Virus record (IMG/VR): IMGVR_UViG_3300017548_000008 | Span: 1-32,643 of that record | DNA length: 32,643 nucleotides | Reading direction: 5' to 3' (one strand) | From: a virus | Lineage: Duplodnaviria; Caudoviricetes | In this document: in pieces, positions 2,998 through 19,586 of the stretch | How positions within the stretch are numbered: position 1 is the stretch's first letter | Layout of the letters: every line of letters starts with the position of its first letter | Position numbers and translations under genes: made by a program | Notes under the pieces: generated by a model | Told to the model about the DNA's origin: nothing | What the model saw: the letters and a program-made list of their open reading frames with translations, nothing else | The model's database searches: none

Positions 2998-3020
2998 GAT
3001 GAAGTCCTCAGCATTTAAGG

Positions 3021-3193
3021 CGTTCGCCAGCCGACCTGTTCGGTGTGGTCAGTGCCTCTTGTGGTTGACGCCACGAGCCACGCCACTCCGTTTGACCTAT
3101 CCCAATCCGCCCGCTTGCGTCAACAAGCTCTTGATTGGGCATCAGCCAGTCCACACCTGCTAGACCCTGCTCCTTCCAGACCGACGGCGAACG
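3021..3193 (-). ncRNA. Putative structured RNA / 5' leader with complementary (kissing) loops
   Basis: 17-bp closing stem (3 G-U pairs that work only on the minus strand), 7-bp inner stem, loops UUGACG and CGUCAA; begins at the predicted TSS of promoter 3201-3229. Confidence 0.65.
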
Positions 3194-4370: not shown

Positions 4371-4377
4371 GGTGTCC

Positions 4378-4563
4378 TCAGCAGAGTTGAATCACGAGGT
4401 CGGAGATGTCGGCGATGCGCATGCCGCCGTTGTTGTAATACTCCTCGACCTCGCTGACGTGCGCGTCGACGTAGGCAAGGGCCCGCTTCGCCCTGCTGGC
4501 GCTGACGCCGCCGACCTTGACGAGTTCACAAATGTCCAGCTTAACTTCTTCGGCGATATTCAT
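4378..4563 (-). CDS. Small early protein, likely paralogue of 5825-6004
   Basis: TGCTGAGGAC-CACATC-ATG; its last codons TGC TGA form the next motif copy. Confidence 0.75.
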   Translation of the reverse strand: MNIAEEVKLDICELVKVGGVSASRAKRALAYVDAHVSEVEEYYNNGGMRIADISDLVIQLC

Positions 4564-4588
4564 GATGTGGTCCTCAGCATTTGTTGAA

Positions 4589-4750: not shown

Positions 4751-4766
4751 GATCAGGTCCTCAGCA

Positions 4767-4973
4767 TTACAGTCGAATGAAGGTGGCGGCAGACTTGGTG
4801 GATTGGCCGTTGGGCATGAACAGACGATCACGATCAACACCATTCCGAGAAACCCAGAATTGGCCGTTGCGCTTTACCTGAATTACGACGGCCTTGTATT
4901 CTTTTACCTTTTCACCAAGAAACCACGTTTCGACAACAACTTCTTGGTTGATTTGAACTTGGTTGGTGGTCAT
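4767..4973 (-). CDS. Small early protein (MTTNQVQINQ...), 68 aa
   Basis: Start re-called from TGCTGAGGAC-GAAGATC-ATG. Confidence 0.75.
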   Translation of the reverse strand: MTTNQVQINQEVVVETWFLGEKVKEYKAVVIQVKRNGQFWVSRNGVDRDRLFMPNGQSTKSAATFIRL

Positions 4974-5011
4974 GATCTTCGTCCTCAGCATGTTCGTTTG
5001 ATCGTGAAACC

Positions 5012-5459: not shown

Positions 5460-5504
5460 GATTTAGATCCTCAGCAGTTCCGGTCGTTCGTTGACCGTGA
5501 AGAC

Positions 5505-5560
5505 ATTATAGATCTGATTTGTGGTCTTGTAAACACCTATTTTCAAAACTATTTTGTAAC
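5505..5560 (-). promoter_or_regulatory. Strong sigma70 early promoter B
   Basis: TTTACA (5533-5528)-17 bp-TATAAT (5510-5505); upstream ACAAAATAGTTTTGAAAATAG nearly identical to promoter A. Confidence 0.85.
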
Positions 5561-5591
5561 TCGCCATTTACAATTTATTTGTGATTTCGTG

Positions 5592-5630
5592 CAAATAGGT
5601 GTTTACAGCTTTGTGGTGTTGCACTATAAT
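5592..5630 (+). promoter_or_regulatory. Strong sigma70 early promoter C (divergent from B)
   Basis: TTTACA (5602-5607)-17 bp-TATAAT (5625-5630). Confidence 0.85.
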
Positions 5631-5678
5631 GTATTCACGGTCAAACAACATGGACCGGAACTGCTGAGGACAAAGATC

Positions 5679-5822
5679 ATGACCAAGAAACAAGCCATCC
5701 AACTCGCCAAGAAGCTCCGCGCCGAGGGCAAGACCGTCAAGGTGTTCTGCCGCAGCGGCGTCTACACCCAGCCGGGCCGCGGCATCGTGCCGTTCGTCGA
5801 GTACTTCGTCGTGGAGCAGTGA
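5679..5822 (+). CDS. Small basic early protein (MTKKQAIQLAKKL...), 47 aa
   Basis: TGCTGAGGAC-AAAGATC-ATG; the longer ORF from 5370 runs through promoter DNA. Confidence 0.75.
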   Translation: MTKKQAIQLAKKLRAEGKTVKVFCRSGVYTQPGRGIVPFVEYFVVEQ

Positions 5823-6659: not shown

Positions 6660-8792
6660 TCAATACTTCTTCTTGGCCGACGCCTTGCGTTCCATCTTGG
6701 CAAAGTAATCCTGGATGTCCTTGGACGTGGCCTTCACCCACTTGTTGTGGTTGCGAATGATGTAGAACCGATCTTGCCCATGCGGCGACCTCACCGGATT
6801 GCCGTTCGCCACCATCTGGGCGCCAGACTTCCGAAGCTCCCGGCCCAGGCCGTTTGCCGTCGTCCGCGTCTTCCCGGTCGGGTCATATAGCTCCAGCAAC
6901 TCGCGGTTCGTGAACAGGTCGCCTTCCACCACGACCTCGCCCACCTTCAATACTGCGTCGGGATCATTCAGCAACCTGTTGACCCAGCTGCCGAGGTCTG
7001 ACTTCACGTCGCTGATCATGCGGCGCTTGGCCTCAGTCATCATGGCACGGCCTGCCGGATTGAAGGCATCGGTGTTCCGCTGAAGCAGCCAGTGGAAGAT
7101 CGCCGCGGCGCCACCTGAGTCCAGCCAAAGCTCGTATTCCCGATACCAGTCCTCGTCGAGCGGGGCCACGACCACCTCGTGCACGAAGGTGCGGCGGTCG
7201 TCATCCTCGAGAAAGAAGGCGTCGGGCTGGTTCGACGTGAAAAGATAGTTGATGCAGTCCGGAATCTCGTAGGACGGGATGAACTTCGCGTTCACCCGCA
7301 GCGACTTCTGCGTGATGAGCTTCTTCAGGCGGTCGTTGTCCTCCCGCTTGTCGGTCCCCGTCACATCGTCACCCAGCACGAACTGCTTGTTCTCCGCCCA
7401 CTCATTGAATGAGGCGTGAAGCTCAGGCCCGCTGATTTCGGTAAAGTTCTTCCCGTAGATGCGGCCCAGCGAATAGCCGATGAGCGACTTCCCCGTGCCG
7501 TGCCGAATCCCGTAGATCAGGACCGAACTATAAAGCTTCATGCCCGGGTACTGCAACGGATAGGCGCACCAATCGAGAAACCACTCCTTCGCCCGCGGTT
7601 CTGCCCCGGTGAAGATGTGATCGACAAGCTGGAGAAATGGTTTGACGTCACCCTTCCTCGGCTCGACGCCCCAACCCTCCCACGTGTTCCAGGCGGTGCG
7701 CCGCGGGTGGTCTGCCTCGATGAACTTCGGCTTGCCCGGCGCGTACGTAAGTCTTCCTGCCTCGGACCTAAGTGGCCAGCTGATCCAGGCCTGGGCCCCG
7801 CTGACCGCCTTGAGGCTAAGCCGGCCGTCCTTCGACATCACGTTCTCGCTGTACGAGGCCGTGGCGTAGGCGTGGCTGGTAAAGGCGTTCGGCGACATCT
7901 TTGATCCCGTCTCACGATCGATGATGAGGCCGGGATTGTAGATGTAGATGACCTGGCTGTTGAGCTTCCAGAGAGATTGCACAAGGGTCAGCGGCTGCGC
8001 GGCCGTGCGCAAGAGGCCCGCCAACTCGTCGGCAGAACGTGCCACCAAGAAGTCGTCAAGCCCGGTCTTCGCCCCGTCCTCCAGGACCTCGGGCAGCGGC
8101 ACCACCTTGGGCAGGGCCCCGCGGGCCATGAGGGCCTCGGCCAGGCGGTTGAGGGCGGCGCACACGTTTTCATTGGCCCGGAAGTCGGAGTCGTAGATGA
8201 TATAGACATGTCGCTTGACCCAATTGACCTGCTCTAACTCCGGCAGGAAGTCGAAACCCAATTGGCTGGACTTGAAGCTGTCGACGCCGCCGAGGCCGAT
8301 GGTGGGATAGCCCTCCTTCGTCGCCTTGGCCGCCTTGAACTCACCCTCGGTGATGATGAGGGGCGCGTCGGGATCGGCCATGATCTTCACCCACGTCTGG
8401 CCGTCGGGCAGGTTGCGTGGGAAGTACGCGCACAGGCCAGAGCCAGGCGGCTGAATGTAGCGCTGCGGCTTCTTCTCGGCCAGGGCCGCAAAGTCAGTGG
8501 GCGATTCCAGGTAGCGAAGACGGAAGAACTGCGGCCACTTGGGCAGCGGGGTCAGTGGTTTGCTGGGGTCCTTGGGGTCCCAGTAGTTGATCCTGATCGA
8601 CGGCACCTGCCTGAAGAGGTGGTGCGTGCCGACCGTCTGCTTGGCCGTCAGCGCCTCCATGCCCAATAGCATGAGGTCATCGAGGTCGAGGCCAGAGCTG
8701 GTGACCTTGTCGATGACTAATTCGCGGTCTGACGGGGAGAGGTGATCGATGCCCTTGTACAGGGCCTTCTTGGATGTGCGACGGGTGGCCAT
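6660..8792 (-). CDS. DNA primase-helicase (DUF3854-type Toprim domain + SF3/D5-like P-loop helicase)
   Basis: Toprim motifs ITEGEFKA, YDSD, GLDD; Walker A GIRHGTGKS, Walker B FVLGDD, sensor FTSN. Confidence 0.88.
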   Translation of the reverse strand: MATRRTSKKALYKGIDHLSPSDRELVIDKVTSSGLDLDDLMLLGMEALTAKQTVGTHHLFRQVPSIRINYWDPKDPSKPLTPLPKWPQFFRLRYLESPTDFAALAEKKPQRYIQPPGSGLCAYFPRNLPDGQTWVKIMADPDAPLIITEGEFKAAKATKEGYPTIGLGGVDSFKSSQLGFDFLPELEQVNWVKRHVYIIYDSDFRANENVCAALNRLAEALMARGALPKVVPLPEVLEDGAKTGLDDFLVARSADELAGLLRTAAQPLTLVQSLWKLNSQVIYIYNPGLIIDRETGSKMSPNAFTSHAYATASYSENVMSKDGRLSLKAVSGAQAWISWPLRSEAGRLTYAPGKPKFIEADHPRRTAWNTWEGWGVEPRKGDVKPFLQLVDHIFTGAEPRAKEWFLDWCAYPLQYPGMKLYSSVLIYGIRHGTGKSLIGYSLGRIYGKNFTEISGPELHASFNEWAENKQFVLGDDVTGTDKREDNDRLKKLITQKSLRVNAKFIPSYEIPDCINYLFTSNQPDAFFLEDDDRRTFVHEVVVAPLDEDWYREYELWLDSGGAAAIFHWLLQRNTDAFNPAGRAMMTEAKRRMISDVKSDLGSWVNRLLNDPDAVLKVGEVVVEGDLFTNRELLELYDPTGKTRTTANGLGRELRKSGAQMVANGNPVRSPHGQDRFYIIRNHNKWVKATSKDIQDYFAKMERKASAKKKY

Positions 8793-8795
8793 ATA

Positions 8796-8828
8796 TCAGG
8801 CCCTTCCCGACTTGTTGGTTGTGGACAT
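8796..8828 (-). CDS. Putative 10-aa leader peptide (MSTTNKSGRA) in frame with the primase
   Basis: GGAG SD and GAGAAGAATCATG start context identical to that of gene 4165; stop followed by TAT-ATG of the primase. Confidence 0.4.
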   Translation of the reverse strand: MSTTNKSGRA

Positions 8829-8848
8829 GATTCTTCTCACTCCGATAC

Positions 8849-9190
8849 AGCCTGGCGCGACTGCCGGGCTTGCCCATAAAGCGACCGGTCCTCAGCAGTT
8901 GGTCACGGCCAAAATAACAATGCGCTTAGGGCAGGGCGGCCAACCGATCGTCAGTGTCAGGTCTCGAGCCGGCGGGAACGAGGTTGGGCCTGATAATCGA
9001 TTGGCCAGGTCTGGTTGCCCTGCCCTGAGCGCACTTTACCCGATGCTCAGCCACTGGGTAGAGGGGTCGACGATCCGCGTGAGACGGCCAAGGCTTGCTG
9101 AGGACCTTTGGGCGGAGAGCGAGAAGTTGGGTTCCGAGGCGCGACCAGTGGGACCCCTGCCAAGGAGCAGGAACCGGCGACGCCAACGAA
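8849..9190 (+). ncRNA. Putative large structured RNA, antisense to the primase leader
   Basis: At least five hairpins including a 22-bp stem 8921-8942/9012-9033; the wobble pairs are G-U on the plus strand. Confidence 0.55.
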
Positions 9191-9241
9191 GAACCCCACG
9201 CACTTAATGCCCTCGGCCGATACGGACCGTCGACGAGACGG

Positions 9242-9270
9242 ATTCTAGACTGACCTTCGAAGAAAGTAAA
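9242..9270 (-). promoter_or_regulatory. Sigma70 promoter for the primase operon (about 440-nt leader)
   Basis: TTTACT-17 bp-TAGAAT. Confidence 0.65.
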
Positions 9271-9305
9271 ACGGCTGACCGTAACCTCCGCGGCCAGAGA
9301 ATTTA

Positions 9306-10088: not shown

Positions 10089-10424
10089 GCTACGGCAGGA
10101 GGGACATCAAAATTGAGCCGCTACAGAATTCGCCCCGCTACGAAACCCTAATTCTCTATCTAACTAATATTTTAAAAAATAGAATATGATAATAATCCTA
10201 TTATAACCATCTATCTCTAATAACCTTACTATCTTATATATTCTATTTTTTAATTTTTGACTTCTATCTAGAAAAAGAGATTTGTAGTAGTAAAGCTCTC
10301 TAAGTACTTGATTTTTAAGGCCATTTGGCCTTTTGGGCTCCGCCGCGTTCTGTATCAGGAGGGCCATTCTGGGTGCCAAACTGCCCCGAGAGCATTGCCA
10401 GGGCATCATCTCGGCCATTTGGCC
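10089..10424. other. AT-rich non-coding region, candidate replication origin or packaging site
   Basis: 10151-10320 is 22% GC (37/170 counted by hand); short repeats; lies at the strand switch between replication and packaging genes. Confidence 0.55.
10301..10313 (-). promoter_or_regulatory. IHF-binding site
   Basis: TAAGTACTTGATT is an exact reverse-complement match to WATCAANNNNTTR. Confidence 0.6.
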
Positions 10425-18875: not shown

Positions 18876-19586
18876 ATGACCCTCACCAAGAAGCAACAGA
18901 ACAAGGTGCTCGCCACCCTGGATCAACTGGATCACGACAACGACGAGCACTGGAACAAGGATGGCTCGCCCACCGTCTCCGTGGTCGCCGAACTGGCGGC
19001 CTTGCCGCAACTGACCAAGGCCGACATTCACGACATCGCTCCCGACTTCAAGCGCGCGGTGCAGGAGCCCAAGACCGAGCAGTCGCAAGACAACGCCAAC
19101 GGCGACGCCGCGCAAGGCAATGCGCCGACCAATCCCGAGCAGGACCAAGATCCCGAGCAGGACCAAGATCCCGAGCAGGACCAAGATCCCGAGCAGGACC
19201 AAGATCCCGAGCAGGACCGTGAACTCACCGAGTTGGAACGCGTCGAGCGGCAGCTGGCAGCGGCCCGCGATTTGCTGGACAACGCCATCAGCAATGTGAC
19301 CAAGGCCCAGCTGGAGCAGCAACGTTGCCAGAACATCGTGCACCATTTGGAACTCCGGCTGTCGCGCATGACCCACGCGCATCGCGACACGTCGGCCGCC
19401 ACGGTGGCAGGCTATCTGCAGTCGCAGCAACGTGTCCGCGCCGAACAAGAGGCGCAGTACGCCCGCATGAAGGAAGAAGGGAAAATCGGCAAGCCGCGCA
19501 GCCAACTGGACAAGGCCATGGCACGTCGCCAGGGCTACGGCCACCAGCGCATGGTCATGCCGCCGCTGTTTGCCGGTAAGAAATAA
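18876..19586 (+). CDS. Hypothetical head-region protein with PEQDQD repeats and a coiled coil
   Basis: GGAG SD; LD.LD..NDEHW.KDG.P N-terminus. Confidence 0.75.
   Translation: MTLTKKQQNKVLATLDQLDHDNDEHWNKDGSPTVSVVAELAALPQLTKADIHDIAPDFKRAVQEPKTEQSQDNANGDAAQGNAPTNPEQDQDPEQDQDPEQDQDPEQDQDPEQDRELTELERVERQLAAARDLLDNAISNVTKAQLEQQRCQNIVHHLELRLSRMTHAHRDTSAATVAGYLQSQQRVRAEQEAQYARMKEEGKIGKPRSQLDKAMARRQGYGHQRMVMPPLFAGKK
19132..19218 (+). repeat. Perfect 18-bp tandem repeat, 4.8 copies
   Basis: Unit ATCCCGAGCAGGACCAAG at 19132, 19150, 19168, 19186 and partial at 19204. Confidence 0.95.

Follow-up and report, generated by a model that had tools for sequence, protein, structure and literature searches.

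The phage antisense RNAs known so far, such as C4 and CI, each control a single operon of a temperate element, and CI of phage P4 acts with a delay as the RNA builds up. Published accounts describe P4 CI as a short structured RNA from the leader of the replication operon that pairs with sites in its own transcript (PMC4825925), and C4 of phages P1 and P7 as an RNA whose loop presents a complement that blocks a ribosome-binding site (RBS), its target specificity resulting in heteroimmunity (PMC12197685); in C4 and CI, an upstream target or leader is removed by RNase P (PMC5499578). IsrK of Gifsy-1, a short RNA derived from its own leader, acts in trans to activate the readthrough transcript (PMC4825925). 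Furthermore, ONT-cappable-seq of the virulent phage PAK_P3 identified a short RNA derived from the 5' untranslated region before the primase/helicase gene (10.1101/2023.10.13.562163), and cluster K mycobacteriophages carry a short conserved word, SAS, of unverified function at many non-structural gene starts (PMC12699233). Here we describe a predicted small RNA in the leader of the primase-helicase gene of a long-tailed phage, virus record IMGVR_UViG_3300017548_000008, whose complete 32.6-kb sequence (32,643 nucleotides, nt) constitutes the window analysed. The RNA represents an apparently undescribed, conserved phage regulatory element with a multi-gene seed regulon and, as judged from sequence comparison, probably represses the translation of early genes by base-pairing in trans.

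The plus strand of the window carries structural genes from about 10.6 kb onwards, and the minus strand mostly encodes early and replication genes. An 11-mer motif, counted with at most one mismatch, occurs in 11 copies compared to 0.93 expected, a number reached in none of 100 shuffles. As the tag UGCUGAGGA it precedes seven early-gene starts (six on the minus strand, one on the plus strand), and four of the seven tagged genes are the first gene behind a sigma70-type promoter. The copies away from gene starts comprise two hairpin copies, GACCGGTCCTCAGCAGTTGGTC at 8883-8904 and CCAAGGCTTGCTGAGGACCTTTGG at 9088-9111, and intragenic matches with one mismatch at 715 and 9427. Both hairpins had been noted in an original prediction made from the window alone, which proposed that one phage RNA silences a multi-gene early regulon through a shared RBS, with the plus-strand loop at 8883-8904 as the anti-RBS. 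The hairpin copies exist as described there, and so does a third loop at 9043-9054, which reads GCTGAG at 9051-9046 on the minus strand. The proposed 13+4 nt complementarity of the plus-strand copy at 8883 to the leader of one early promoter (promoter C) is likewise real, because the minus strand at this position is a direct copy of the tag. The regulon itself is strongly supported by sequences of related phages, but loop and strand had been misassigned: the predicted anti-RBS loop is that of the minus strand at 9088-9111, and the loops at 8883-8904 and 9043-9054 correspond to cis target sites.

Comparison of related genomes established the promoter position, structure and strand of this RNA, the co-occurrence and covariation of its loop with the tag, and compensating changes in its seed. 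Alignment of the primase yielded 146 loci, to which three further loci and three annotated records were added; after removal of contig L088, which is that of the window itself, of 12 loci whose primase start was truncated or uncalled, and of exact duplicates, 118 loci were retained. Of these 118 non-identical loci, window included, 86 carry the word CCTCAGC on the sense strand no more than 600 nt upstream of the primase. The element is also carried by the cultured Stenotrophomonas phage AXL3 and Pseudoxanthomonas phage PW916, whose primases are about 54% identical to that of the window. Among phages whose primases are about 50% identical, the 7-mer core is nearly invariant. The 86 loop-bearing loci form 53 clusters at 80% leader identity, 50 of which were used as lineages; L095, L141 and L149 were left out because no sound closing stem (P1) was obtained with the helix finder, which had replaced a search by duplex folding that over-extended this stem.

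The layout of the element is constant and consists of a promoter, the 5' arm of P1, a variable arm (P2), a hairpin (P3) with the loop CCUCAGCAA, the 3' arm of P1, a CC-containing tail (identified in 40 of the 50 lineages) and a U-rich linker. A TTTAC[AGT] hexamer at matching spacing was found in 62 of the 86 loop-bearing loci, and P1 begins about 6-10 nt past the -10 box, i.e. approximately at the transcription start. The seed is mostly unpaired in 45 of the 50 lineages. When our structure was imposed on a MAFFT alignment of 19 sequences, 89.5% of cells were paired compared to 32-41% in slid controls, with double changes at 16 of 18 pairs. A model built for the RNA (R1) matched 58 of 100 sources, with one match each and on the primase-sense strand, and later also matched L095, a lineage outside the set of 50; no match was obtained in four genomes without the loop, in a run without a positive control. 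Furthermore, a pattern scan blind to the primase returned 62 matches, of which 37 passed R1; 35 of these are located before primases of the window's family and two near contig ends.

The RNA is placed by sequence on the minus (primase-sense) strand, in the primase leader and behind an early-type promoter. Of the 50 lineages, 36 have a sense-strand promoter at the stem and one has an antisense-strand promoter there, and no plus-strand promoter was found in the window between 6345 and 11000, where an early-type promoter was identified on the minus strand (9270-9242). Non-Watson-Crick pairs also favour the sense strand, with G-U versus A-C counts of 21 to 3 in P3, 11 to 3 in P1 and 21 to 9 in H2, the hairpin of the first cis site.

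Loop and tag co-occur across relatives. The tag precedes 101 of 1466 genes in the 50 loop loci, compared to three of 486 in 23 loci without the loop; the latter omit four variant loci described below, the near-duplicates L086 and L116, and L101, L132 and L143, which have little upstream sequence or lie at a contig end. The original prediction had named relatives that keep the RBS motif without the loop as evidence against it; by these counts no-loop relatives almost lack the tag, an outcome in favour of the prediction. Within four orthologous target families, the tag is present at 34 of 52 genes in loop loci and at none of 22 in no-loop loci. Tags are located predominantly on the early side, before 73 of 668 genes compared to five of 332 genes on the structural side. 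Among 67 tagged genes scanned, phrog_1221 (DUF932), phrog_421 (DUF2786/DUF7168) and phrog_13900 were each identified six times; two members of phrog_13900 are weakly Gam-like, and many tagged genes are small and without family assignment.

The sequences flanking the shared core covary as well, which had been a further check on the original proposal. For 86 RBS copies from 37 lineages, the flanks of the phage's own loop matched better than swapped ones (3.26 versus 2.72 of 6 positions, p 0.0002), which was not the case for the controls, intragenic copies (p 0.56) and copies on the non-coding strand (p 0.06). The signal persists when each primase cluster is represented by a single lineage (19 or 13 clusters, median p 0.002). 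The RBS copies are similar to the loop complement (3.36 of 6) and not to the cis copy (1.88, p 0.12). Moreover, eight of the 50 lineages keep the loop without cis sites, and seven of these eight have called RBS tags.

A compensating change of the seed was identified in L073, L076, L079 and L118, which form one clade in the tree and were first scored as lacking the RNA. Their loop, CCUUCAGC, shares a one-base insertion with their tag, GCUGAAGG, which is present at 19 of 145 gene starts where the canonical tag is present at none; conversely, the variant tag occurs at three of 1466 starts in canonical loci. The P1-type RNA of this clade is encoded 850-1140 nt upstream of the primase, with other genes and a second promoter in between, and R1 ranks it first in three of the four loci (E 0.013-0.058). 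L003 may represent a third seed class: a P1-type leader about 200-120 nt upstream of its primase start carries the loop GAACCUCC, which matches GGAGGUUC-type RBSs and the RBS of its own primase, and GAGGTTC precedes six sense-strand starts, although this tag overlaps the ordinary Shine-Dalgarno (SD) consensus and R1 gave no match. In L053, a P1-type leader about 170-60 nt upstream has another loop that seems to pair only in cis. The RNA family may thus have more seed classes.

In most lineages, the RNA is followed by potential target sites in its own transcript. At least one copy of GCUG(A/G)G is present between P1 and the next start in 41 of the 50 lineages, and at least two in 33; L058 also has cis sites once its start is corrected, and they are lacking in eight lineages and in the variant clade. 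The copies are mostly located in loops, site 1 being mostly unpaired in 30 of 37 cases, and they most often differ by an A-to-G change (10 cases), which still allows a G-U pair with the seed. Located 5' of the loop is a second segment whose complement precedes the start codon, with perfect helices of 6.5 nt compared to 4.9 nt for swapped sequences (p 5e-5, 39 lineages). Since such extended pairing would cover the RBS on the primase side, primase repression is predicted too, which argues against the idea, also part of the original prediction, that early shut-off is linked to replication onset; as formulated, this link is not supported. In L026, L033 and L038, an inserted gene separates the primase from the RNA and its cis sites, and the element would therefore control whichever gene comes first.

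In the window (Table 1), P1 is formed by 9234-9223 and 9077-9066 and encloses the long arm P2 and hairpin P3. Read along the minus strand, the tag complement comes first (9106-9096, GGUCCUCAGCA within P3), followed by the two tag copies of the cis sites. P1 spans 169 nt compared to 72-128 nt in the other 49 lineages, and the P2 arm is about 80 nt longer than in relatives. As P2 is long, R1 matches the window RNA only in part, and its membership in the family therefore rests on promoter, P1, loop, tail and cis sites. The two hairpins of the original prediction are weak on their own (-3.5 and -6.1 kcal/mol on the plus strand, -3.7 and -4.2 kcal/mol on the minus strand), and the region 8840-9300 folds far better than shuffled sequences on both strands (z -5.2 plus, -5.8 minus). 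The long hairpin between the cis sites appears to be restricted to the window, as a search for related sequences returned only chance matches of 16-19 nt. The mini-ORF (open reading frame) preceding the primase has a strong RBS, is in frame with the primase and ends 3 nt before its start (TGA TAT between), from which translational coupling is inferred; either coupling or readthrough is possible.

Table 1. Predicted RNA, primase leader and tag copies in the window
Feature	Position	Strand	Remarks
Sigma70-type promoter, early type	9242..9270	-	TTTACT, 17 nt, TAGAAT; predicted start near 9236
Predicted small RNA	about 9060..9236	-	P1/P2/P3 and CC-containing tail; z -4.6; covariation in relatives
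Seed hairpin P3	9088..9111	-	loop CCUCAGCAA at 9103-9095
Second pairing segment	9113..9125	-	complementary to 8844-8834, the RBS of the mini-ORF before the primase
Cis site 1, hairpin H2	9036..9060	-	loop GCUGAG at 9051-9046
Long near-perfect hairpin	8919..9035	-	117 nt, -66.5 kcal/mol; between cis sites 1 and 2
Cis site 2, hairpin H3	8883..8904	-	carries UGCUGAGGACC at 8897-8887
RBS and mini-ORF	8796..8844	-	RBS 8844-8834; 10 codons, 8828-8796
Primase-helicase gene	6660..8792	-	DUF3854 + DUF5906, 710 amino acids; proposed cis-controlled gene
Tag	5661..5671	+	before ORF 5679-5822 (47 amino acids), first gene of promoter 5602-5630(+)
Tag	5467..5477	-	before ORF 5459-5109, first gene of promoter 5533-5505(-)
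Tag	4981..4991	-	before ORF 4973-4767, first gene of promoter 5040-5012(-)
Tag	4757..4767	-	before ORF 4750-4589
Tag	4570..4580	-	before ORF 4563-4378
Tag	4374..4384	-	before ORF 4370-4176
Tag	3004..3014	-	before ORF 2997-2692, first gene behind promoter 3229-3201(-)

The RNA resembles P4 CI in its size and structure, its origin in a replication-operon leader and its pairing with sites in its own transcript (PMC4825925), as well as in two-segment pairing near an RBS and in its proposed delayed action. Location in the leader of the controlled transcript with complementary sites downstream, as in C4 and CI, is found in 41 of the 50 lineages and in L058, and there are two pairing segments, one of them near an RBS, for which perfect helices are clear and the energy test is weak. 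In contrast to P4 CI, it has no Rfam match, its stem starts at the predicted transcription start without a seqA-like upstream leader, it has many predicted trans targets in separate operons, its cis sites are lost in some lineages, and no integrase was found in four genomes. Because P1 begins so close to the -10 box, almost no 5' leader remains that RNase P could remove. With C4 it shares a loop-presented complement that would block RBSs (PMC12197685), and its seed variants may, by analogy, confer heteroimmunity. However, C4 controls an antirepressor operon, whereas the tag precedes up to about 10 genes, and a search of five genomes detected no HTH_3 repressor. The C4 model RF01695 had no match in the window, in 13 loci or in the L079 and L020 leaders; it also had none in four genomes, where the positive control was blank. 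The icd/kil-antirepressor or alpha operon setting of C4 and CI in a temperate element was likewise not found, with PF00589 absent from four genomes and PF00239, PF01381 and PF13614 from five.

The likeness to IsrK lies in one promoter giving rise both to a short RNA and to the readthrough mRNA on which the target is located, and in coupling through a small ORF, for which the mini-ORF at 8828-8796 may be a counterpart (PMC4825925). IsrK activates a single cis-encoded target, whereas pairing of the window RNA covers the SD of many genes, and repression is therefore predicted. A conserved, exposed seed that is complementary to several RBSs and covaries with them, as in the seed regulons of base-pairing small RNAs, is present. 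The SAS consensus GGGATAGGAGCCC differs from the tag UGCUGAGGA, and the available text on SAS mentions no complementary RNA (PMC12699233), whereas the window tag has a matching, covarying RNA loop. The PAK_P3 RNA precedes a primase of another class, has no R1 match and, in the available text, no reported targets (10.1101/2023.10.13.562163). A literature search for GCTGAGGA, CCUCAGC and phage small RNAs together with primase returned no description of the element; the seed is absent from six supplementary files of PMC10690425, and its three further files and the supplement of PMC5737381, which lay outside this search, might list the element unnamed.

Based on these features, the following mechanism is proposed. 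The early-type promoter would fire at once. Cleavage or termination in the U-rich linker, followed by trimming, would then likely free the first 80-170 nt of the transcript as a short RNA that has a CC tail and paired ends. Paired ends and a CC tail are general signs of stable RNAs, and the released RNA would likely be stable and accumulate. Its loop CCUCAGCAA would then cover the SD of UGCUGAGG(A)-tagged early genes, including those for DUF932 and DUF2786 proteins, the weakly Gam-like family and many small genes; both CUCA and CUGA fit the YUNR turn of antisense recognition loops. In most lineages, the RNA would also catch the two loop-borne tag copies in its own readthrough leader and zip to the primase RBS, which would place replication under negative feedback. 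The early programme would thereby likely be shut off with a delay and by RNA alone; the same mechanism would equally well provide a carrier state or immunity to superinfection.

No tyrosine integrase (PF00589) was found in four genomes, and no resolvase (PF00239), HTH_3 repressor (PF01381) or ParA (PF13614) in five, with positive controls detected in both searches. AXL3 has been described as a virulent phage that may undergo pseudolysogeny, with a latent period of 2.5 h; the available text does not mention the tag or loop motif (PMC7504290). Among the fetched flanks, no non-structural protein family accompanied the RNA; the families with many members that are limited to RNA loci belong to the terminase/structural side, and three small early-side ones occur in eight, six or fewer of the 50 loci. 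We tentatively suggest, as a possibility somewhat short of an even chance, an RNA-only repressor, in which a single stable RNA and an operator of 8-11 nt in the SD of early genes and primase replace a protein repressor and serve timed early shut-off, an integrase-free carrier state or superinfection immunity, with the seed variants (CCUCAGC, CCUUCAGC and perhaps GAACCUCC) as immunity groups.

Several observations weigh against repression in trans by a conserved RNA. Gene starts in the relatives were obtained with a crude caller of our own, and 13 of the 50 loop lineages have no called tag within the fetched flanks. The flank matching is partial, at about 3.3 of 6 positions, and a first control that was not split by strand also covaried (p 0.007) and was redone with the split. 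In the duplex-energy test, the second pairing segment performed weakly (six of 39 versus three of 39 controls). The best match of R1 in the window is a partial one (9088-9146, 15.9 bits, E 0.09, best of 33). In the lowest-energy fold of the window only CCUC of the seed is open, and opening the whole loop costs about 3 kcal/mol. The sense strand has the lower folding energy in only 16 of the 50 lineages, a comparison that is biased because the sense strand is C-rich. Finally, L074 and L085 have another RBS word, AACGAGG, at many starts, and a search for its complement found none.

Other explanations of the loop and the tag differ in what they would leave unaccounted for. A phage or host protein might bind the tag as RNA, with H2 and H3 as protein sites and the complementary loop masking or titrating them; small hairpin loops do present GCUGAG, an arrangement common among protein sites, and a core this invariant among such divergent primases would fit a protein ligand. 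We regard this as unlikely, since RBS flanks that track the flanks of their own loop, the wobble-compatible A-to-G changes and the matched one-base insertion would remain unexplained, and no candidate protein family accompanies the RNA in the fetched flanks. It is quite unlikely that the RNA pairs with the same sites and activates them, for which IsrK provides a precedent (PMC4825925), or that early mRNAs titrate the loop and free the primase RBS, which could couple primase output to early transcription: the paired region at early genes is the SD itself, the tagged leaders in the window have little structure (-1.8 to -8.1 kcal/mol), P1 forms first so that primase-side pairing is an alternative fold, and titration is inapplicable where the cis site is absent.

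A switch acting in cis on the primase only, with the early tags as strong SD copies that spread by copying and are not targets, would be consistent with the frequency of cis sites among the lineages and L058, with L053, where pairing seems confined to cis, and with the fold of the window leader, which at -207.9 kcal/mol in the free state is less than 3 kcal/mol apart from the state with the loop on site 2 (-205.2 kcal/mol; -204.7 kcal/mol with the loop held open). This appears very unlikely given that loop and tags persist in lineages without a cis site, that the variant-clade RNA is separated from the primase by other genes and a second promoter, and that RBS copies follow the loop complement and not the cis copy. 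A functional RNA on the plus strand, with 8883-8904 as its anti-RBS loop or 9088-9111 as a decoy RBS loop, is hardly credible: both hairpins fold with G-U pairs on the plus strand in the window, and in 34 of the 50 lineages it is the antisense strand that has the lower folding energy, but both the promoter and the G-U versus A-C counts point to the sense strand, and several lineages without site 2 still keep the P3 loop. Repression by the minus-strand RNA through base-pairing in trans is the preferred reading.

Additional features were observed in the window and its relatives. Back-to-back, near-consensus early promoters are located at 5505-5630, and their transcripts open with near-identical short hairpins followed by the tag. 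Behind promoter 3229-3201(-), a 200-nt untranslated leader (3195-2996) just before the tag at 3004 folds as a closed multi-arm structure (-80 kcal/mol, z -3.0 versus base shuffles) and may constitute a second RNA; a 10-nt stretch near 3174 within this leader is complementary to P2 of the RNA at 9171, possibly by chance. An AT-rich region at 10160-10310, between primase-side and terminase genes, is a candidate origin or packaging region, and CCCGAGCAGG, present five times at 18-nt spacing at 19134-19215 (+) within ORF 18876-19586, probably encodes a six-residue protein repeat. A pattern scan for two motif copies 150-211 nt apart returned only L006, a contig-end palindrome that was discarded, and an 'anti' match in L112 was rejected as it lies inside the terminase gene.

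In phages without recognisable lysogeny genes, a single RNA and a common RBS tag thus seem to govern an entire early regulon, and the compensating changes found in nature already indicate base-pairing as the mode of recognition. This offers a testable answer to how early genes are turned off and what purpose start-associated words may serve, and the presence of the element in the cultured phages AXL3 and PW916 makes direct testing possible. As translational switches, the two seed variants would be orthogonal to each other. If the RNA indeed acts as an RNA-only repressor, unexplained shared start words elsewhere, such as SAS, may be targets of unseen RNAs.
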